Part shown: positions 17,141 to 61,293 of the stretch, piece by piece
Position numbering within the stretch: position 1 is the stretch's first letter
How the letters are laid out: the number at the start of each line of letters is the position of its first letter
From: Eledone cirrhosa
Taxonomy: Eukaryota
Assembly (NCBI GenBank): GCA_964016885.1
Contig: OZ024745.1
Span: forward strand, 125,798,001 to 125,862,000
Direction: 5' to 3'
Length of the DNA: 64,000 nt
Position numbers and translations under genes: made by a program
Notes under the pieces: generated by a model
What the model saw: the letters and a program-made list of their open reading frames with translations, nothing else
Told to the model about the DNA's origin: nothing
Databases searched by the model: none

Positions 17141-17509
17141 ATTTTGTACATTACATACATACATGATGACTTGCCCCTCGTTATCGAGTATGGCCATTGC
17201 ACGAGAAAAAATAACAAAAACAAAAAATAACATACATAATAATAATAATAATAATGATTTCATTTATTGGCCACAAGGGCCGACATATAGGGGACAACAC
17301 AATAGACAGGGACAGTGGGGGTTTACATAGAGATCAAGTAAGTATAAATAACAAGAAAAACAAAATAACAATAAAAATACAACAATGAAAGTTCCCCAAT
17401 AAGAGGGATCACCACCCAGGGTTGACTCAAGCACCCCACCAGTCCTGAGCCACCCGACGCTCCTAGGGCACCCGGGAAGGGCACCCCTCTCCTTCTCGAA
17501 TTCACCAGC

Positions 17510-20500
17510 CTACAGGCGCATGATCAGAGTAGGCCCACTCACGCGGGCCATTCTCGCCACATTCACCCACCTTTCAGTAAATGTACTGGGGGGCAGCACT
17601 TCTCTCTCCACCCTCACCTTCCTTTCCAAGTGAAACTTGAAGAAGTTGATGAGGGATTGGCCGAAGAGAAAAGTGTCTGTCTTCAGTCCTTTCAACCTGG
17701 TCCACCATGCAACCTCTTTCGCTACTGCCACCAGGCAGAGGAAAATTGCCTGCCCTTCCTGACCAAAAGAAGGCGGCGGGTCAATCTTCACTATGGACTC
17801 GGACGATAGCCGGATCCGTTCTACACGCGACAATAGCTGTTCGACATAACCCCACAAGTCAGCAATGCACGGACACTGGACGAGTGCGTGCAGAACGGTT
17901 TCGTCGCTCTGCGCGCATCTCGGGCAGGTTCGTCTGACAGCACTTCCGTGCCTGTAGAGTTTATCCCGAACCGGCAGCGCCCCCCGGTAGCACTGCCAAG
18001 CGAGGGATTTCTGGAAGTTATCCATCGTCCCCGGCTCGAAAGTCCTCCGGAACATACTGGTCAGTTCTACTTCGTTGACGCCCAGAGCCTCTCCTAGTAC
18101 GTCATCGCACTTGCCCTCCACTAATCCTCTATAGAAATCTTGAGTGGAAGTTCCACTGACCGCATTGCCCACCTTGCAGAGTGCAGTGAGCGCCTGGCAA
18201 CATTCCAGATGCCAGTCGCCCAGTCTCGGTCTCTTCTTGACCCAGGACTGCAGCTCAGTCAAAGAGATGAGCTGCGGAAAGGCCCGTCTAACAAACGGCG
18301 ACCACACCTGTTCACCGTTTAGGCAAAATATCTGGAGATGTCGCAGCCTCAGCGCATGTCTGCGCATCATTAGCCACGGCATGCCCAGCCCTCCACGAAG
18401 AGGGTGCTGGCAGCAGATGGACCGCCTCACCAACGGGACCCGTCCCCTCCACAAAAATTTGAAAAGGAGCCGTTCCAAATTGGCGAGGCGTGGACGGGGG
18501 CAAGGCACGACGGTCAGGCGGTAGTAGATGACGGACGCGATGTACGCGTTCGCCACCTCCGCCCGCCCTTTCAGTGATAGCTTTCTCTCAGCCCATTTCT
18601 GGGTGAGGTTGGCTATCCTGCTCGTCACCTCGTCCCAATTCTTATCCACCTGGAGGTCTGGTCCGAACCAAACCCCGAGCAACTTTACCGGTCCGTCTGT
18701 CCAGCGCCCAACGACGCTGTTGGACGGCATGGACTTGCCTCTCCAGGTGCCGAGCTGCAAGCCCACCGACTTTTCCGGGTTAAGTTTTGCTCCCGTCAAC
18801 CTTTCATATTCCTCCAAATGGGTGCGGATCACCTCGATTTCCGAGGTGTCCGACACCATCACGGTGATGTCGTCTGCATAAGCGGACGCAGCCTTTCTAC
18901 GTCCCGGTTCGAGCGGGATGCCCTGCAACAACTCCAGCTTCCGCAGTAGAGGCTCAAGAGTCAATACGTACAGAAGTGAGGAGAGAGGGCACCCTTGACG
19001 GACCGATCGAGAGATCTGAAACGGTTCCGAGAGGTGGCCATTAACTTTGACCACCGAGCGGATGCCGCTGTACATTGCAGCGATCCAGCTTCTGAAGACG
19101 GGGCCGAAGCCAGCCGCCTCGAGGACAGCCTCCAAGTACCGATGGTCGACCCTATCGAATGCTTTCGATTGATCTAAATTGATCAGAGCCCCACCGAAGC
19201 CAGGTTTGCACCCAACCCTCTCTATGATGTATCGCATGAGGTGGAGGTTGTCGTGTATGGACCTGGTCGGGATTGCGCAAGTTTGCGCCTCCCCAACCAA
19301 ATCTTTGACGACAAGCGCCAACCTTTTCGCTAACACCTTGGCCAAAATCTTAAACTCTGTGTTGAGCAGGGTTATGGGCCTGAAATTATCTAGTGTGTCC
19401 CTCTTGTTCTCGTCTTTCCTTATCAGCGTCACTACGCCACGGCTCACAGAACTGGGAATGCTCCCGTTCTGCTGCCAGTTGCAGTAGAGCGCTTCGAGGA
19501 GATCGGAGAACAAGTCTGGCATATTTACGTAAAGCTCGTAGGGCAGACCATCCAAACCGGGTGACTTGCGACTCGAGCAGCCGACAAGGGCGTCCTGAAT
19601 TTCGGCTGATGTTATCGGCTCTTCGCAGCGCTCAGCGTCGGCCGTCGAGAGGCGTGGCAAGCCGTCGAGGTAGGGACTGAAGTCCGCCGCCATCTCCGAC
19701 TCACCCATCCTCCCGAACAATCGAGCAAAGTGCTGGCGAAAGGCCTCACACATCTGCTTGGAATCGCTCAGTTCGTGTCCATCTCGATCCGTCAAAGACC
19801 GAATTGTGGTTTTATTTCCACGCTGCGTCTCTGCAAAGCGAGCCCATCGGGCAGCTTTGGTTCCCTCGTTCCTCAGAGCACGCGCCTTAGCTCTGACAAT
19901 GCAACCTTCGTGTTTCGCATTGAAGAAATGGTCTAGTGCCATTCTCGCCGCTAGCACGTCTGTTGCAATGCCACTACAAATAGCCTCGTCTAACTTAGCT
20001 ATCAGCCCCTCCTCTTTTCTATTTTTCTCTATTGCTACTTCTTTGCTAAATCCTATCGAGGTTGCTCTAATCTCTCTTTTGAGTGCCCCCCACCACCTGT
20101 TGTTGACAACCCCCCCTGTCAACTTTTGCTTAACTAAGTTGTTGACCCGGTCCCTGTAAGCTTTACGTGCCGGAAACGACATGTTTAGCTTCCAGTAGCT
20201 AGGTCCTAACCTACGTGTCTTATCTAGGTCGACCATACAGATCACAAGCTTGTGATCTGAATAGGCAACCGTTTTAAAATGTGGACATCCTACACTATTT
20301 CTATCTCTTTTCCTAATGAAAATCCTATCTATGTACGATCTAGATGACCCTATGCGATTGGTCCAGGTCCATACTGGCGCATTAGGGAAATCTAGTCGGT
20401 ACCTGTCAGACAGTTGAAACTGGCTGATCAGGTACTTGAGGCTTTTGCACCCCCCGCTCCTATCAGATACTCCCACACAATCCCAGCGTGCTTCTAAGAT

Positions 20501-20929
20501 GCCATTCCAATCCCCTATTAACAGTAAAGGGCGAGACGTAAGCAGAAAGTTTTCCAGGCGCCTAAAGAAGTCCGGCCGACCGGCCCCAGTAGGGGCGTAG
20601 ACGGCCACCAGTCTAAAGGCACCACCTTCGCTATTGCTCACGTCCAGGACCACCAACTTTCCGTCAGGATCCCGGAAGATTGACCTTACCTCGAGATCCA
20701 GACATTTCCTAAACAGCACAGCCACTCCACCTCCCATTCCCGGCCGACTAACAGATGCAAAGATCTGATAATCGTCGAAAATCGGCGCCAGTGCGCGTGT
20801 GTCGGAAATTCTGGTCTCGCTGATGGCAATTACATCCATTCCTAGTGACCTGAGGTCGTTGAGCAAGTGACCTTGCTTCCAGGGCGACCCCAGGCCACGA
20901 ACATTTAAACTTCCTACTCTTATGGCCAT
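17510..20929 (-). CDS. LINE ORF2: AP endonuclease + reverse transcriptase + C-terminal zinc finger (1139 aa)
   Basis: APE motifs SLNVRGL, ISET, VYAP, GDWN, IDRIF, SDH. RT motifs SPGLDG, FRPITLLN, LDQSKAFDRVDH, VRQGCPLS, YADD. Zinc finger CPRC-x8-H-x4-C. WKLN and RPITLLN context typical of L1/Tx1. Confidence 0.97.
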   Translation of the reverse strand: MAIRVGSLNVRGLGSPWKQGHLLNDLRSLGMDVIAISETRISDTRALAPIFDDYQIFASVSRPGMGGGVAVLFRKCLDLEVRSIFRDPDGKLVVLDVSNSEGGAFRLVAVYAPTGAGRPDFFRRLENFLLTSRPLLLIGDWNGILEARWDCVGVSDRSGGCKSLKYLISQFQLSDRYRLDFPNAPVWTWTNRIGSSRSYIDRIFIRKRDRNSVGCPHFKTVAYSDHKLVICMVDLDKTRRLGPSYWKLNMSFPARKAYRDRVNNLVKQKLTGGVVNNRWWGALKREIRATSIGFSKEVAIEKNRKEEGLIAKLDEAICSGIATDVLAARMALDHFFNAKHEGCIVRAKARALRNEGTKAARWARFAETQRGNKTTIRSLTDRDGHELSDSKQMCEAFRQHFARLFGRMGESEMAADFSPYLDGLPRLSTADAERCEEPITSAEIQDALVGCSSRKSPGLDGLPYELYVNMPDLFSDLLEALYCNWQQNGSIPSSVSRGVVTLIRKDENKRDTLDNFRPITLLNTEFKILAKVLAKRLALVVKDLVGEAQTCAIPTRSIHDNLHLMRYIIERVGCKPGFGGALINLDQSKAFDRVDHRYLEAVLEAAGFGPVFRSWIAAMYSGIRSVVKVNGHLSEPFQISRSVRQGCPLSSLLYVLTLEPLLRKLELLQGIPLEPGRRKAASAYADDITVMVSDTSEIEVIRTHLEEYERLTGAKLNPEKSVGLQLGTWRGKSMPSNSVVGRWTDGPVKLLGVWFGPDLQVDKNWDEVTSRIANLTQKWAERKLSLKGRAEVANAYIASVIYYRLTVVPCPRPRLANLERLLFKFLWRGRVPLVRRSICCQHPLRGGLGMPWLMMRRHALRLRHLQIFCLNGEQVWSPFVRRAFPQLISLTELQSWVKKRPRLGDWHLECCQALTALCKVGNAVSGTSTQDFYRGLVEGKCDDVLGEALGVNEVELTSMFRRTFEPGTMDNFQKSLAWQCYRGALPVRDKLYRHGSAVRRTCPRCAQSDETVLHALVQCPCIADLWGYVEQLLSRVERIRLSSESIVKIDPPPSFGQEGQAIFLCLVAVAKEVAWWTRLKGLKTDTFLFGQSLINFFKFHLERKVRVEREVLPPSTFTERWVNVARMARVSGPTLIMRL

Positions 20930-20958
20930 GCTGGCAGGATGAATGGGAGAGGAAAGGT

Positions 20959-22869
20959 TTACTTACCTTCCGGGGTCTTGTGAAGGTCGGGTGGTTCGAC
21001 CTCCATGGTTTGTGGGGTTTCTTTTGGGAACCCCTTTAATAGTCTTGACGTGGGTTTTACGTTCGGGGTTCCCACATCCCGAGGAAAGCTCTTTCGAATT
21101 TCTTTGTATGAAGCGAGCGACATTCGCATCAGAAGCAAATTATCTGGTACGCGAAATGTGCTCGCTTCAAATGTTTCCCCGTCTTTTTCGATGTTTGTGC
21201 TTCGTGCTACATGGGCCATCAATTCCTTGTTGGCCCTTCTGGCAAGCACGAAGTTTTTAATGTTTTGTTGCTCGGGTTTTATTTGTTCGTGTGATTGTGG
21301 TGGTGATAGCTTTGTTAGTGTTGTTTCTATTGTGTCTGCGTTTGTTGTGGGTGGGGTGTCTGTAGTTTCTGATGTTTGTGTGTCTATTTGTTCTTGTGTC
21401 TGTTTAGCTTGTTTGCGTTTGGGGGATTTTGGTGGTTGTGTTGGTGATGCTGTGGGGAAAATGTTTGTGTGGGTGGTGTGTGTATTTTTTTTTGTGGGGG
21501 TGTTTGTGCTTTGTGGATTTCTTTTTTTTTTGTGTTTTGTTTTTTGTATTTTGGGGGACTTTGGTTTTCCCTCATCTTCACTGCTGGAGGATGAGGGGTC
21601 TGTGGCTGTGAGCGTGTTTGTGTCTGAGTGAGTGTTTATGTTCTTGTTCGTGTGTGTATTTTGGGGGGGAGGGGGAATGGGAGAGCTTTCCTCGTTTCCC
21701 CCCTGGGTGTGCAATTTTGGTGGTTCCATTGTTGACGGTGTTGCTGGTGGTCCTTGTCCCGGCGTCGCCAGCAGTGGAATCTTTCGACCCCTTGCGCTTT
21801 TCGGCAGTTGAGGGCAGAAGGCTCGCAAGTGTGTCGTTTCCCCACAAAGGAAACAATGCGGCCTTTTGCCCTCAGTCATTATATGCAACACCCTCCCGTT
21901 TTGGAGGCGGATGTGGTCCGGGATTGTTTTTACGTTTTCGGGTCTGATTTGGAGCAGTATCTCCAGATCAACCCCGGACCAGTCGTCCCTGGCAGTTCTC
22001 GTTGCCTCTACCGGGACTGTATCCGTTCCTTCCACGATTACGCAACCCAGGAGCCACCACATATCAAGTCCTGGTGGAATCCTGGGAATGCGCACACGTG
22101 CTATTCGTTTTCCCATGTGGGAGGGGTACATTATGACCTTGCTGGTTTTGCAAGGGGTCATTGAATGCTTCACAGCGAGGGCTTCAGACTTGAACAGCAC
22201 CGAAACGGTGCCGTATTGCCTGCCCCTCTCTATGAAGTCTGTGTCCTCTCTGATGTATTTCAGTGCGGCTTCTATGTCAGCTTGGGCGATTATCGCTGCC
22301 CTCTTTGTCTCTACTGAGATGCATCTGAAATGCACCGTTCTTTTTTCCACTGCCTCAATGGCTTCTGCCGGGACAGTTAAGTTTGCCCAGGTCTGCTCTT
22401 GATTTATGATTTTCCAGGCCTGGGCCAACTTTTCCTCTCTGTTGGTTAAGTCGATGCTGTAGCATGGTCTCCTTTTAGCCGCTGCCACAGCAGCGAAAGT
22501 GTTCTTGTTGGTGTTGTCACTGTTGTTGTTCTTGTTGGTGTTGCTGCTGCTATTGCTGTTGTTGTTCTCCCCTGTGTCGTGGTTTCCCTCTGTGCTGTTG
22601 GCCTTGTTGGTGCTGTTGCTGTCGCTACTATTACTCTCTGTGCTGTTTGTTTTGTTGGTGCTCTCGCTATTACCACCTTCTGCGCTGTTCGGCTTGTTGG
22701 TGTTGGTGTTGTCGCTGTTACCTACTTCCGCGCCGCTCGGCCCGTTGGTGCTGGCACTGTCGCTGCTCACACTCGTGCTGGTGGCGCTCCTCGCCTCACC
22801 TCTCCTCTCAACGCTCAAGTCGCCGTTGCACGACAGCAGACCCGCCTCTAGGGGGCGTGGCTCCGCCAT
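20959..22869 (-). CDS. LINE ORF1 (gag-like nucleic-acid-binding protein, 636 aa)
   Basis: Ends 29 bp upstream of ORF2. CCHC knuckle CFLCGETTHLRAFC, TFAAVAA motif, N/S/T-rich N-terminus and T/P/K-rich C-terminus. Confidence 0.92.
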   Translation of the reverse strand: MAEPRPLEAGLLSCNGDLSVERRGEARSATSTSVSSDSASTNGPSGAEVGNSDNTNTNKPNSAEGGNSESTNKTNSTESNSSDSNSTNKANSTEGNHDTGENNNSNSSSNTNKNNNSDNTNKNTFAAVAAAKRRPCYSIDLTNREEKLAQAWKIINQEQTWANLTVPAEAIEAVEKRTVHFRCISVETKRAAIIAQADIEAALKYIREDTDFIERGRQYGTVSVLFKSEALAVKHSMTPCKTSKVIMYPSHMGKRIARVRIPRIPPGLDMWWLLGCVIVEGTDTVPVEATRTARDDWSGVDLEILLQIRPENVKTIPDHIRLQNGRVLHIMTEGKRPHCFLCGETTHLRAFCPQLPKSARGRKIPLLATPGQGPPATPSTMEPPKLHTQGGNEESSPIPPPPQNTHTNKNINTHSDTNTLTATDPSSSSSEDEGKPKSPKIQKTKHKKKRNPQSTNTPTKKNTHTTHTNIFPTASPTQPPKSPKRKQAKQTQEQIDTQTSETTDTPPTTNADTIETTLTKLSPPQSHEQIKPEQQNIKNFVLARRANKELMAHVARSTNIEKDGETFEASTFRVPDNLLLMRMSLASYKEIRKSFPRDVGTPNVKPTSRLLKGFPKETPQTMEVEPPDLHKTPEGK

Positions 22870-23163
22870 GTTTTTTTGAGAAAAAAATTATTATTTTTTT
22901 TCAAAATAAAGTTCAAATATTTGGGCCAAAAGGCCCAAATATTATGAGTTATTCCTTCACAGGATACAAATGAAAGTCTTATAATGCTTCAACGGTACAA
23001 AAAATAAACAATTCTCTACAATTAATCCTCAAAAAATCGCTTACTCACGGAGCTTCAAAAAACGTACATCCACTTTCGTCAATAATAATAATAATAATAA
23101 CAACAATAATAATAACGATTTCTTTATAACAATAATAATAACGACAACAACAACAATAATAAT

Positions 23164-23346
23164 TGTTTCTACTTTAGGCACAAGGCCAGCAATTACCAGT
23201 GCATTACTGGTACTTTATTTTATCGACCCCGTAAGGATGAAAGGCAAAGTCAACCTCGGCAGGATTTGAACTCAGATGGTAAAGGGACGTAACTATGCTG
23301 GAAAGCATGGCGTCCGACCCTCTACCGATACTGCCAATCCACCGCC
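23164..23346 (-). mobile_element. SINE, short form, next to the AAT/AAC tract that holds the LINE
   Basis: Family consensus in reverse complement. Confidence 0.9.
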
Positions 23347-23429
23347 AACAACAACAATAATAATATACATATATATATACACACACACAAACATATCTAT
23401 ACACACACGATAGTAATTAACAGCGCTGC

Positions 23430-23820
23430 GAACAAAGTGGATTTTTAGCCCAGCCAATGATCTACAATGTCTTGCACAGAGTCGGCAACCAAAACATTCA
23501 CTGGGAATAGCCGGCTGTGGTTGGAGTTCATGTACTTTTGCATGTCGTTTGAACCCTCCTGCAGATTTACATTCTCTACCACATGCTTGGCAAGCATGAT
23601 GAGTAGCATCTCCAACAGCAGCCTGGTAGTCAACCACTGGTCTTACTTTATGACTGCGAAGATGACTTTCGAGTCCAGCTTTGCTTAGACAGAGTCTCGC
23701 ACAGACGCTGCATGTCAGCACCATAGGAGGACCCTCTCCGTCTGGAAGTGCAACAGCATTACCCTTCCTCACATCCCGCTTTATTTTCTCGTATGCGATT
23801 CGAGATGCCTCAAAGGCAAC
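23430..23820 (-). mobile_element. RTE-like LINE 3' coding fragment with three C2H2-type fingers
   Basis: CSVCARLCLSKAGLESHLRSH, CQACGRECKSAGGFKRHAKVH and CRLCARHCRSLAGLKIH match the RTE terminal 'C..C.R.C.S..GL.SH' motif. Confidence 0.65.
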
Positions 23821-24111
23821 TTTTCCCTCATATACAGTTTGTCAAATCATCGAGTCAGTCAATTCGTACTTACGAATAAACGCACTTATATACGAAGGAT
23901 TCATATATCCATTGTTTCAACGTTGATATAATGTAGGTTTTTAGGTTAATGAGCGAGCAGACATTATATGGATTTGCTGACATGAAAGTTAATTTTGCTT
24001 ATGCAATTGTTTTCTTTTACTTCCTTTCATTATCTCATAACTACTCATATACACACATACATACATACATACATACATACATACATGCATACATGCACAT
24101 ATACATACATG

Positions 24112-31470: not shown

Positions 31471-31584
31471 ATGTCAAAACACTCCCAAAGTGACTGCAAA
31501 AGCTATAGACAATATCTTTCAAGGTTAAGAGGATTTCTAAAATATATTAATTGTAAAATGATAAGTTCGTCAATACAATCTTCC

Positions 31585-32304
31585 GAACAATATATATAGA
31601 AGGAACAATATATATAGAAGGAACACTATATATAGAAGGAACACTATATATAGAAGGAACTATATATATAGAAGGAACACTATATATAGAAGGAACACTA
31701 TATATAGAAGGAACACTATATATAGAAGGAACAATATATATAGAAGGAACACTATATATAGAAGGAACACTATATATAGAAGGAACTATATATATAGAAG
31801 GAACACTATATATAGAAGGAACACTATATATAGAAGGAACACTATATATAGAAGGAACAATATATATAGAAGGAACACTATATATAGAAGGAACACTATA
31901 TATAGAAGGAACACTATATATAGAAGGAACAATATATATAGAAGGAACTATATATATAGAAGGAACACTATATATAGAAGGAACACTATATATAGAAGGA
32001 ACACTATATATAGAAGGAACACTATATATAGAAGGAACACTATATATAGAAGGAACACTATATATAGAAGGAACTATATATATAGAAGGAACACTATATA
32101 TAGAAGGAACTATATATATAGAAGGAACACTATATATAGAAGGAACACTATATATAGAAGGAACAATATATATAGAAGGAACTATATATATAGAAGGAAC
32201 ACTATATATAGAAGGAACACTATATATAGAAGGAACACTATATATAGAAGGAACACTATATATAGAAGGAACACTATATATATAGAAGGAACTATATATA
32301 TAGA
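31585..32304. repeat. 18-bp minisatellite GAAGGAAC(AC/AA/TA)TATATATA, ~40 units
   Basis: Direct reading; gives the spurious (SIYSVP)n ORF. Confidence 0.97.
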
Positions 32305-32954
32305 GAATTTCACAGACCCAAGTCAAGAATCAACTTCTTGGATACATGAAGAAGAAATATAAGTAATTTCTGTCAATCCAACGTACAATAGATGATTTTT
32401 TCATCGATCACGGTAGGATGAAGCACAATCATATTGCCGAATTTAGATTATTTAAATACAAAATAAAAATTAAACAGCATAATTAGAAAAGAAGAAGTAT
32501 TGGTATACTTTCTGCCCCCTCTCCGCCGGCCAACCATCACCTTTATATTTTACTATATATTTGATATTATAACCACTATTAACCACTACAGTAAGGCAGT
32601 TGATTTAGCAGAATCGTTAGTACGTTGGATATTTGTTCCGGATCTCTGCGCTTGAGTTCAAATCCCGATGAATTACACTTAGCATTTCATATTTTCGGGG
32701 TCGATAAAGAAAGTACCGGTCCTCTGCTGATGACGCCTTCTCTCTTCCCAGCTATCACAACCTGACTGATTTTTAGATCAAGGAAGAGTGTCTGCTCGCT
32801 ACTGCATGGACACGTCAAACCATTATCGATAGCATGGTAAATACTACCGAATCATAGTCGATTGAGAACGACGGCTTTAATTCTTTGTTTCACCACCACA
32901 GTAGATGACTTCTGAAATAATTATAAGTGTCATCAGTCTATTATTAAAAGCTCA

Positions 32955-42548: not shown

Positions 42549-43128
42549 TGCGTTTGTGTGTGTGTATTATTTTCATCAAAAAGAAAGGAGAAAGGATAAA
42601 AAAGAAACATTACTTCGTGTAAAAGTTATAAGCATTCGATCTTCATTCATAGTCTCCTATATTGAAATATTTAAAAATAGGCCGAATGTCTCTCCCCCCT
42701 CCACTACCACCAGTTCTCTCTCTCTCTTTCATATAGATAGGGAGAGATGTCTCCCCACCACCACCATCTCTCTCTCTCTCTCTCTTATATATAGAGAGAG
42801 ATGTCTCCCCCCCCCTCCCCTCCACCCACCACCACCATCACCAGCTCTCTCTCCTATATAGATATATAGATAGATAGATAGATAGATAGAGAGAGAGTAT
42901 TTTATTTATCAACTTTGAAATGATGGAAGGTAAAGTTGATCTCAATGAGATTTGACGTCAGAGCGAAGTTAATCGGTAAAACTACAGCTAATTCACCGCA
43001 TTTTGTATGCAAGAAGGACATAAAATAATTCTTAATGGAAATACAAAAGTCAAAGGAGTGCATAGGGTAGTAAAATGTAGAAAAAGAATACATCGCCAAC
43101 AAATGTATATTTTGCTATATGAAATAAT

Positions 43129-43363
43129 TGTTTCTACTTTTGGCACAAGGCCAGCAATTACCATAAATAAAGTATCAGTAATGTATTGACATAAAATAAA
43201 GTACCAGTAATGTATTGACATTACTGGTACTTTATTTTATCGACCCCGTTAGGATGAAAGGCAAAGTTAACCTCGGTGGGATTTGAAATCAGACCATAAG
43301 GGGCCGTAACTCTTTGCTGCAAAGCATGGCGTCCGACCCTCTACCGATACTACCAATCCACCA
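43129..43363 (-). mobile_element. SINE with internal inverted double duplication (43163-43219)
   Basis: Consensus interrupted by two sense-orientation copies of its own core. Confidence 0.88.
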
Positions 43364-45101: not shown

Positions 45102-45500
45102 TACTTATATAAGCAAAAAATATACATTATTATATGCACACATAACGGTATGATTGTGTGCGCGTACACAAACGTGTATGTATGTGTGTGCGTACACAAA
45201 CGTGTATGTATGTGTGCCTTCATGAATACCAACTTTAATACCTTCAAATGAAACTTTATCTTCAGGTGCTACTATCTATTATAAAATTGCTATATTTCAT
45301 TTTTATCCCCAGTTAAGGCGCATTACATCTTATCTGTGGCAGATTTTGTCTTGGAATACTAATTAGGCCCCATGGCTTTAGTTGTCCGATTCCTTAGGTT
45401 CGCGTTTACGTCAACTCCACCACCTCTCTTTTTCCCTCTTCCTCCCTCGCACTTTCTCTCTGCCATCCCAACAACAACTATAATAACTTACAGTAGCAAC

Positions 45501-46345
45501 ACCACCATCATTGCCACCACCACCATTGCCACCACCACCATCATTGTCACCACCACCACCATTGTCACCACCACCACCATTGTCACCACCACCATTGTCA
45601 CCACCACCACCATCATTTCCACCATCACCACCATTGCCACCACCACCATTGCCACCACCACTATTTCAGCCATCACCATCATTGCCACCACCACCATTGC
45701 CACCACCACCACCATTGTCACCACCACCACCATTGTCACCACCACCATTGTCACCACCACCACCACCACTATTTCAGCCATCACCATCATTGCCACCACC
45801 ACCATTGCCACCACCACCACCATTGTCACCACCACCACCATTGTCACCACCACCATTGCCACCACCACCACCATTGCCACCACCACCATTGCCACCACCA
45901 CTATTTCAGCCATCACCATCATTGCCACCACCACCATTGCCACCACCACCACCATTGTCACCACCACCACCATTGTCACCACCACCACCATTGCCACCAC
46001 CACCACCATTGTCACCACCACCATTGTCACCACCACCACCACCATTTCCACCATCACCACCACCATTGCCATCACCACCATTGTCACCACCACCACCAAC
46101 ATTGCCACTACCACCATTGCCACCACCACCATTGCCACCACCACCACCACCAACATTGCCACCACCACCATTGCCACCACCACCATTGCCACCACCACCA
46201 CCATTTCCACCACCACCACCAACATTGCCACCACCACCATTGCCACCACCACCATTGCCACCATCACCAACATTGCCACCACCACCATTGCCACCACCAC
46301 CATCACCACCACCATTGCCACCATCACCACCACCATTGCCACCAC
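45501..46345. repeat. Cryptic (CAC)n-based satellite, ATTG(C/T)(CAC)n units
   Basis: Direct reading; higher-order marker CTATTTCAGCCATCACC at ~45661, 45769 and 45901. Confidence 0.95.
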
Positions 46346-46405
46346 CGCAACTACCAATACAACCTCCACCATCATATCCAGCAATAGTAGTGAGGTTAAT
46401 ATTAT

Positions 46406-46608
46406 TCAGTATCGGTAGAGCGCCGGACACCATGGTTCACAGCAAATCGTTACAGCCCTTTACGTTTTGAGTTTAAATCCTGCCGAGGTTACCTTTCTCT
46501 TTCATCCTACGGGTTCAATAAAATAAAGTACCAGTCATTCACTGGGGTTGATTTAATCAACTTCCCCCACTCCCCAAAATTGTTGGCCTTGTGCGTAAAT
46601 CAGAAATC
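46406..46608 (+). mobile_element. SINE, long form
   Basis: Ends TCCCCAAAATTGTTGGCCTTGTGCGTAAATCAGAAATC|ATTATT, the closest match to the LINE 3' end. Confidence 0.88.
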
Positions 46609-47433: not shown

Positions 47434-47490
47434 TACACGCACAAAACATGCATACACACACACACACATATGTATATATATATATAATAA

Positions 47491-48281
47491 TTGTTTCTAC
47501 TTTTGGCACAAGGCCAACAATTACCCAGTACATTACTGGTACTTTATTATATCGACTCCGTAAGGATGAGAGGTTAACCTCGGCGGGATTTGAACTCAGT
47601 CTGTAAAGGGACGAAACTGTGCTGCAAAGCATGGCGTCCGACCCTCTACCGATACTGCCAATACACCGCCCTATATAATTGTTTCTACTTTTAGGCACAA
47701 GGCCAGCAATTACCCAGTGCGTTACTGGTACTTTATTTCATCGACCCCGTAAGGATGAAAGGCAAAGTCAACCTCGGCGGGATTTGAACTCAGATCGTAA
47801 AGGGACGTAACTATGCTGGAAAGCATGGCGTCCGACCCTCTACCGATACTGCCAATCCACCGCCCTATATAATAATGATATAATCCATATATAATAATTG
47901 TTTCTACTTTGGCACAAGGCCAGCAATTATCGCAGTGCATTACTGGTACTTTATTTTATCGACCCCGTAAAGATGAAAGGCAAAGTGAACCTAGGCGGGA
48001 TTTGAACTCAGAATGGCAAGGGCCGTAACTCTATGCGTTAAAGCATGGCGTCCCTCCCTCTACCGATACTGCCAATCTACCGCCCTTTGTTCTACAATTA
48101 ATTGTTTCTACCTTTGGCACAAGGCCAGCAATTACCCAGTATATTACTGGTACTTTATTTTATCCACCCTGGTAAGGATGAAAGGCAAAGTTAACCTCGG
48201 CGGGATTTGATCTCAGAATAGCAAGGGCCATAACTCTATGCGTCAAAGCATGGCGTCCGACCCTCTACCGATACTGCCAAT
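47491..48281 (-). mobile_element. Four head-to-tail SINE copies (~47491-47671, 47680-47864, 47898-48085, 48103-48281)
   Basis: Four consecutive consensus copies with distinct internal variants. Confidence 0.92.
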
Positions 48282-61075: not shown

Positions 61076-61293
61076 AGGTCGATGGATTGGTAGTATCGGT
61101 AGAGGGTCGGACGTCATGCTTTGCAGCATAGAGTTACAGCCCTTTATGATCTGAGTTCAAATCCCGCCAAGGTTAACTTTGCCTTTCATCCTTACGGGGT
61201 CGATAAAATAAAGTAGCAGTCACGCACTGGGGTCGGTTTAATCGACTTTCCCTTCCCTCCAAAATTGCTGGCCTTGTGTCTATATAAGAAACC
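61076..61293 (+). mobile_element. SINE, long form, full length
   Basis: TSD ATTATATGACTTCTC at 61061-61075 / 61294-61308. Confidence 0.93.

Follow-up and report, generated by a model that had tools for sequence, protein, structure and literature searches.

In the L2-clade pairs, represented by UnaL2/UnaSINE and by zebrafish ZfL2-1 and ZfL2-2, recognition is loop-specific and tolerant of the stem, according to the accessible text of PMC4176376. The L1 group contributes little to the known set of such partnerships. As far as the accessible text of a review goes, 58 LINE-SINE pairs were counted, three of them with L1 tails, and these are all from plants or algae and none is a Tx1 element (PMC3747384). 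The plant and algal L1 pairs are maize ZmSINE2 and ZmSINE3 with LINE1-1_ZM, and Chlamydomonas SINEX-3_CR with L1-1_CR (PMC3747384, PMC3472496; accessible parts). The question whether strict 3' recognition is ancestral to the L1 clade and was lost in mammals and most plants rests, in the same text, on three plant and algal SINEs (PMC3747384). In O. vulgaris about 12% of the DNA consists of SINEs (PMC13282606, accessible text). In the accessible literature on SINEs or Tx1 elements of octopus or cephalopods, including PMC13282606, PMC4758252, PMC4824008, PMC5786205, PMC3531059, PMC8967140, PMC5203782 and PMC3472496, we found no description of the pair reported below; Repbase, subscription papers and figures may hold one.

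Here we analyse a window of 64,000 nucleotides from Eledone cirrhosa (contig OZ024745.1), by which the whole stretch is meant. It contains a full-length LINE and copies of a SINE in a long and a short form, and a partnership of this SINE with the lineage of the LINE appears highly probable to us.

The LINE of the window

The LINE of the window, in the following family A (Table 1), is classed as a young L1-clade element of Tx1 type. The element is intact, with both ORFs open, and it shows the organization of the L1 clade, with two ORFs and an ORF2 consisting of APE endonuclease, reverse transcriptase (RT) and a C-terminal cysteine-rich domain. Against solved structures, among which few clades are represented, ORF2 matches human L1 ORF2p with E 5e-57 and R2 with E 5e-22. 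Its nearest named relative is a protein of Argonauta hians (69% across the RT region), and the protein searches for relatives returned no named Tx1 reference. ORF1 has no match in Pfam, Transposase_22 included. In the protein atlas it resembles RNA-binding clusters of CCHC and ZCCHC3 type (scores 0.90-0.92); these look-alikes are a lead only, as is the RRM part of ORF1. In animals type I ORF1 is tied to Tx1 (PMC5203782, accessible text). Because of the type I ORF1 and the microsatellite targeting we call the LINE Tx1-type, a label which rests on ORF1 type and insertion specificity, the RT tree having unnamed outgroups.

When the 3' end of the LINE was compared with the genome (3.0 Gb), all 40 scored matches were 99-100% identical. 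Twenty of these copies were retrieved whole: 19 are full-length members of family A with ATT tracts on both flanks, the ATT on the 3' flank (19/19) being biased by the choice of the query, and one has a different 5' part. ATT follows the LINE end in 30 out of 30 loci, and poly(A) was found at none of these 30 ends.

Table 1. Features of the LINE and of the SINE copies in the window.
Feature	Position	Strand	Details and basis
Full-length L1-clade (Tx1-type) LINE, family A	17256..23080	-	5,825 bp; ends set by 19 other full-length copies (5,775-5,834 bp)
ORF2, 1,137 aa: APE endonuclease, reverse transcriptase, zf-RVT	17510..20923	-	Pfam PF03372, PF00078, PF13966
ORF1, 636 aa: CCHC knuckle and RRM-like region (type I ORF1)	20959..22869	-	CX2CX4HX4C in translation
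3' hairpin motif: GGCC arm 17281-17278, CUUGU loop 17277-17273, GGCC arm 17272-17269	17269..17281	-	sequence; present in predicted fold, z -0.55; family-level covariation
Terminal 13 nt: AATAAA hexamer (17268-17263) and GAAATC end	17256..17268	-	sequence
3' (ATT)n tract, target and probable duplication	17236..17255	-	sequence
5' (ATT)n tract of LINE	23081..23100	-	sequence; flanks of full-length copies
5' UTR inverted repeat, 12-bp arms, 4-nt U loop	22916..22943	-	~45 nt ahead of ORF1 ATG
Short-form SINE	23164..23346	-	directly upstream of LINE, same strand; sequence
A-box-like element of short-form SINE	23336-23325	-	
B-box-like element of short-form SINE	23271-23263	-	
Hairpin motif of short-form SINE	23187-23177	-	
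18-bp duplication flanking short-form SINE	23146-23163 and 23347-23364		
Tail of long-form SINE copy	46571..46608	+	third stem pair broken in that copy
Tail of long-form SINE copy	61270..61293	+	17-bp duplication beginning ATTAT

The SINE

The short form of the SINE is 183 bp long, and one exact 30-mer of its tail has 113,641 matches in the genome. The element has the traits of tRNA-derived SINEs: it is short, non-coding and of high copy number, carries A and B boxes, is flanked by duplications and occurs in 5'-truncated copies, down to copies which consist of the tail only and still have duplications. The A-box-like and B-box-like elements were assigned by what we take to be the consensus. 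ARAGORN finds no tRNA gene in the short form, and Rfam no match at gathering score. For the central domain, no clear match to MetaSINEs was seen by eye and by short words, in a comparison with the bivalve Meta sequences of the supplement of PMC4824008 only. In 1.64 Mb of genome DNA no further SINE, unrelated to this one, was found to end in the same tail; the 18 other tail matches therein are LINE tails, SINE copies that are cut short or decayed, or matches of unclear nature.

Some further arrangements were seen in the window. Four short SINEs form a head-to-tail row at 47488-48281 (minus strand), and a SINE copy at 43125-43362 (minus strand) has an internal piece, duplicated and inverted, between central domain and tail. 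Directly upstream of the short-form SINE an open frame with several C2H2-like motifs (23293-23841, minus strand) resembles the C-terminus of another LINE type. Long tandem arrays at 31547-32362 and 45363-46470 (18-bp unit; CAC/CAT-rich) are a source of spurious open frames.

A common 3' end

At their 3' termini the SINE and the LINE group have a sequence in common, which keeps its register relative to the end of the element. A first-pass annotation of the window had quoted this sequence from the LINE end (17256-17294, minus strand), from long SINE ends (46571-46608 and one ending at 61293) and from short SINE ends, and all of the quoted strings are found at these places. The stem-loop which it saw there is shared as far as the loop and three pairs are concerned, but the stem has only 3 bp and folds no better than shuffled sequences: the folding energy of no tail is better than that of its shuffles (z -0.96 to +0.34), and the hairpin is part of five out of eight predicted folds and absent from three. 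The long-SINE stems chosen as examples are imperfect, one with a G/G mismatch at the third pair (46585) and the other with a G-U pair (61270), and their predicted folds are without the hairpin. Similarly, a common spacing of 13 nt to the end is obtained only if the stem is counted as 4 bp in the window LINE and as 3 bp in the SINE. Measured from the loop, the distance to the end is 17 nt in the window family and 16 nt in the SINE and the sister families B and E.

In total 87 SINE tails (61 short, 26 long) were gathered via the central domain from 654 kb of evenly spaced stretches and from the window. In these tails the loop and three pairs are near-constant, while the fourth pair is variable; it is mismatched in 21 of the 26 long SINEs and, among the LINEs, in families B, C and D. 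The middle pair is G-C in the SINE (5' G in 83/87, 3' C in 78/87) as opposed to C-G in the LINE 3' ends. An alternative alignment, dropping one pair from family A, fits equally well, and pairing is kept under both. AAUAAA is present in all LINE families, where it is the most constant neighbour of the hairpin, and AATAAA is absent from the SINE; therefore the hexamer likely belongs to the processing of the LINE RNA and not to recognition. Despite its absence the loop, the pairing and the spacing are kept in both the long and the short SINE form.

The 9-mer core of the tail occurs 36 times in the window versus 6.3 times expected, and none of 100 shuffles reaches 36. From the 87 tails we built a profile, with 3,064 genomic 40-mers located 5' of ATTAT as background. 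On this profile the LINE ends of families A, B, C and D score 18.6, 16.0, 15.4 and 11.1 bits, and family E scores 6.3 bits, which is within reach of the background. Fifty-nine background 40-mers have at least 10 bits, and these are 57 SINE tails and two tails of this LINE group, the best other one having 9.9. The seven ends sampled from other LINEs (two RTE-like, two CR1-like and one each R4/Dong-like, L2-like and I-like) come from our sample and one Pfam search, which is less than a full library, and score between -10.9 and -29.1 bits. These scores rule them out as tail donors, so that the better match from another clade, which the annotation had named as a test, does not exist among them. 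The clade labels of these rivals are our assumption, based on tail types and protein motifs, except that a search with PF14529 picked out the CR1-, L2- and I-like ones. Families B and E had also been considered as better donors by their exact register; this was not upheld, as family A scores as high with one gap. The RTE-like families, seen at three loci, are abundant; they end in (GAT)n, and a cysteine-rich insertion follows their RT core.

Covariation, proposed in the annotation as a check, is suggested by two-sided changes at the family level, one for each core pair: pair 3 in family E, pair 2 between SINE and LINE, and pair 1, as U-A, in one 5' UTR hairpin. They were judged by hand comparison, and each of them is a single evolutionary event.

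Sister families of the LINE

The last ~25 nt, comprising the 3-bp stem, the CUUGU loop, AAUAAA and GAAAU, are common to five sister families, A to E, with ORF2 fragments about 60-99% identical, and the motif is kept across copies and families. An 18-mer over the hairpin and AATAAA has 10,562 exact matches in the genome (control 0), and in 25 of the first 30 loci ORF2-like sequence lies upstream of it, with single segments ~48-99% identical. The 3' UTRs of families B and E are unlike that of A, with the exception of the end. Families A, B and E are followed by ATT repeats, families C and D by ATCT repeats. A tree (a quick version with 43 rows and at most four per stem class) unites C and D (100) and supports the ATT group more weakly (87); family E is nested and sister to B (SH-aLRT 98). 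In C and D, seen at four named loci and others, the target was switched to (ATCT)n with the RNA end unchanged, and the sister enzymes would offer one RNA handle with two DNA targets.

Variants with a base other than G at the third stem position have 4,511 genome matches, of which at least 85 belong to family E (85 of the first 100 listed). In this family (~4,000 copies) pair 3 is changed on both sides, from G-C to A-U, and pair 4 is A-U. The 12 rows among the same first 100 which are not from family E keep the opposite C, as expected of single-copy mutations. A base other than C at the second position is found in 410 scattered genome matches which form no family, and none of the first 100 listed has pair 2 flipped to the state of the SINE. 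A LINE family with the SINE-type stem before AATAAA was sought genome-wide and not found, judged by count alone (13 matches).

Contigs of two other organisms (23 and 14 records) match the last ~35 nt of the LINE and not the UTR upstream of it, and in one of them a different UTR lies between ORF2-like sequence and the tail. Being contigs, they are uninformative on transcript ends, and the tail matches are known from the alignment, which does not display the letters. Among 80 distant relatives from metagenomes (23-43% identity) none has the hairpin before an AATAAA-like hexamer, a result which is weak because many of them lack the 3' end.

Insertion sites

We examined 104 full-length SINEs for target-site duplications. 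In 55 of them a duplication of 9-23 bp starts exactly at the element end (control 23/400), in 10 it starts later, mostly at a decayed ATTAT (control 6/300), and 39 are without duplication. For the 44 of these 55 that lie outside ATT tracts the 5' copy of the duplication begins with ATTAT, the single letters A-T-T-A-T being present in 43, 43, 44, 44 and 42 of them, and a pyrimidine precedes it in 36. Since ATTAT is present in the 5' copy, it is the target and not a part of the tail. The ATTAT start is common to SINE and LINE, as had been claimed, but the sites differ: young LINE copies lie in (ATT)n tracts and the SINE at single ATTAT sites. Accordingly the median number of ATT units after the end is 2 for the SINE (n=30) and 3, 6 and 10 for families A (n=9), B (n=7) and E (n=25). 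A size range of the LINE duplications can not be defined because the copies lie inside microsatellites, where a duplication is without defined ends. Families C and D share the hairpin but insert in (ATCT)n, and the SINE goes with the ATT group.

ATT tails are not restricted to these elements. A young CR1-like family, unrelated to the Tx1-type LINEs, also ends in ATT (5,039 exact 3' ends, ATT after 27 of 30, median 4 units), and its full-length copies are 99% alike. In the two readable copies the duplication follows the added repeats and no ATTAT is found on the 5' side, so that this family seems to add its ATT units. Because it also ends in ATT, an ATT tail alone does not single out Tx1. At five loci the CR1-like family shows an intact ORF of 957 aa, a terminal inverted repeat of its own and an (ATT)3-5 tail. 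An R4/Dong-like family is inserted in the same microsatellites, with the strand reversed. At ten loci stacking was seen in ATT tracts, with LINEs and SINEs head to tail and the R4/Dong-like family tail to tail on the other strand. In the window an 11-nt piece like the tail end of families B and E lies between SINE and LINE (23117-23127, minus strand) and is perhaps a very short truncated insertion.

Ages of SINE and LINE copies

Divergence from the majority sequence has a median of 4.5% in the short SINE (10-90%: 1.8-8.9) and of 13.2% in the long SINE. The medians of the LINE families are 0.9-2.7%, with the upper tenth reaching up to 13%, and full-length family A copies are at ~1%; these LINE samples were picked by exact motif and hence lean young. 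The age comparison suggested in the annotation thus comes out with overlapping ages and activity periods of SINE and LINE families, while most SINE copies are older than the young copies of family A. Therefore the carrier is best named as a lineage. The window's own family need not be the driver, its copies being ~1% diverged and sitting in long ATT tracts versus a median of 4.5% and single ATTAT sites for the short SINE.

Hairpins in the 5' UTR

Three of four LINE 5' modules carry a hairpin ~45 nt before the start of ORF1, and the fourth has none. In the sister families these hairpins have a CUUGU or UUUGU loop, at the same place as the inverted repeat of the window LINE. The stem and loop of the SINE type are found together in one 5' module, the first pair is U-A in another one, and in that of the window LINE a loop of 4 nt sits on a stem of 12 bp. 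In loop-anchored comparisons with long/short SINE tails, 5' UTR hairpins score 34.5/35.0 and 36.3/35.1, the LINE 3' ends 31.7/22.5 (A) and 25.5/29.3 (B), at a background mean of 11.5-13.1 (sd 5-6). In its match to the SINE tail one sister-family 5' UTR hairpin therefore equals or surpasses all of the 3' ends, which strengthens the tie between the SINE and the LINE lineage. The 5' UTR/ORF1 modules are swapped among families: family E ends occur with two modules (L337, L344 and L352 versus L333, L335 and L338), and one A end with a third (L353).

How the SINE may be copied

The same terminal motif and the same ATTAT sites suggest that the SINE borrows the copying enzyme of the LINE lineage. We regard it as likely that the SINE is copied by the ORF2 protein of an ATT-targeting lineage of L1/Tx1 type, which would grip the predicted hairpin with the CUUGU loop. 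The A and B boxes of the SINE probably serve Pol III for its transcription. From the covariation we infer that ORF2p would recognise the predicted hairpin, binding the loop on the 3-bp stem, for which the pairing and not the letters would matter. The endonuclease would nick the bottom strand at ATTAT, and reverse transcription would start at a fixed distance of 16-17 nt behind the loop, ignoring RNA further 3'; precise ends without poly(A) are observed, and the priming step is presumed. A second-strand nick 9-23 nt downstream would then give rise to the duplication that is observed for the SINE. The carrier would be the lineage, that is families A, B and E with their ancestors, and not necessarily the young family of the window. 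Mobilisation of the SINE by the window's LINE family or a near relative, as proposed in the first-pass annotation, has survived the computational attempts at refutation at this level of the lineage.

Where the tail came from is a different matter, and here the 5' UTR hairpins have to be considered. The SINE tail may stem from such a hairpin, or the UTR hairpin may itself be a captured old tail, so that LINE RNA would have the hairpin at both ends. This concerns the origin of the tail only, the copying partner being the same. The SINE-type stem and loop in one 5' module, with the loop-anchored scores given above, and the constant position before the ATG in three of four modules speak for it. 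On the other side, the terminal GAAAY and the exact end point of the SINE match the 3' ends and not the UTR, the hairpin is missing from the fourth module and has a U loop of 4 nt in that of the window LINE, the UTR sequence ahead of the hairpin does not resemble a SINE body by eye, and the score differences for the long SINE are within one standard deviation of the background. We hold this origin to be possible, with the odds against it. Bolder still would be an L1-clade LINE that reads a minimal hairpin of three pairs and a five-base loop at both transcript ends, with the SINE having captured the 5' copy as its tail. This we consider doubtful; if true, no Tx1 system with stringent reading of a hairpin would precede it, and the 5' UTR of a LINE would have given rise to a SINE tail.

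Copying by the Tx1-type ORF2p through the hairpin has to be weighed against a relaxed enzyme, for which it would suffice that an RNA anneals with its 3' part to the nicked ATTAT. The hairpin would then be unread and the motif a relic of common origin or a part of the polyadenylation signal. A stem of three pairs without folding signal and the constancy of AAUAAA next to it in the LINEs would fit, and crocodilian SINEU, with its poly(A) end, was linked to Tx1-Mar by target alone (PMC4494074, accessible text). However, the SINE keeps loop, pairing and spacing in both forms without AAUAAA, two-sided changes are found at all three core pairs, and the 30 LINE ends are free of poly(A), which makes such relaxed copying rather unlikely. 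Copying by the CR1-like (ATT)n family, or by another clade outside the sample, draws on the abundance and youth of that family and its ATT ends, on the seven rival ends being just a sample, and on the predominance of CR1, L2 and RTE among published tail-sharing pairs (PMC3747384, Table 1, accessible text). But the tail of this family scores -23.1 on the SINE profile, and it seemingly adds its ATT with the duplication after it (two copies), whereas the ATTAT of the SINE pre-exists in the target; we therefore rate this carrier as very improbable. A chance likeness of two short AT-flanked motifs is harder still to believe: ~24-45 nt are involved and several families offer several chances, yet families A to D all score above every unrelated 40-mer of the 3,064, and the match is anchored at element ends with the same target pentamer.

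Comparison with known systems

If the SINE and the Tx1-type lineage are partners, the carrier behind a main SINE expansion of octopus-like genomes would be identified. In the L1 clade of animals there would then be a lineage whose tail hairpin covaries, whose young copies are intact and whose SINE exceeds 100,000 copies, by which the question of ancestral recognition in L1 becomes directly testable in cells.

The following comparisons refer to the accessible text of the cited papers. With the L2-clade pairs UnaL2/UnaSINE, ZfL2-1 and ZfL2-2 the elements of Eledone have in common a terminal stem-loop near a repeat tail, of constant loop and replaceable stem, which is shared with a SINE; they differ in being L1-clade and target-specific, with a stem of 3 bp, and in being known from sequence alone (PMC4176376). 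Crocodilian SINEU was likewise assigned to a Tx1 carrier, Tx1-Mar, with shared target preference and age, but SINEU carries snRNA heads and ends in poly(A), and its 3' terminus was found in no LINE, whereas the tail motif is shared here (PMC4494074). Insertion into simple repeats, with sister lineages using different repeats, is also known from the Tx1 families Kibi (TC)n and Koshi (TTC)n and from the crocodilian (TTCC)n/(TTTC)n families (PMC4494074); the targets here are (ATT)n and (ATCT)n, and these families were compared by description, with no reference sequence in the tree. SINE bodies from LINE 5' UTRs have the same type of source as a tail derived from the 5' UTR hairpin, but those are middle bodies from RTE and Vingi elements, while here it would be the tail (PMC5786205). 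A tail-sharing partnership of the L1 group was otherwise found reported only in plants and algae. As is predicted here, the plant and algal L1 pairs have a conserved 3' hairpin with compensatory changes, shared with SINEs, and in both cases the relation is deduced from nucleotide sequence. Theirs have poly(A)/poly(T) ends and longer hairpins (-10.8 to -17.7 kcal/mol), whereas the pair described here is from an animal, has an ATT target and is without poly(A).
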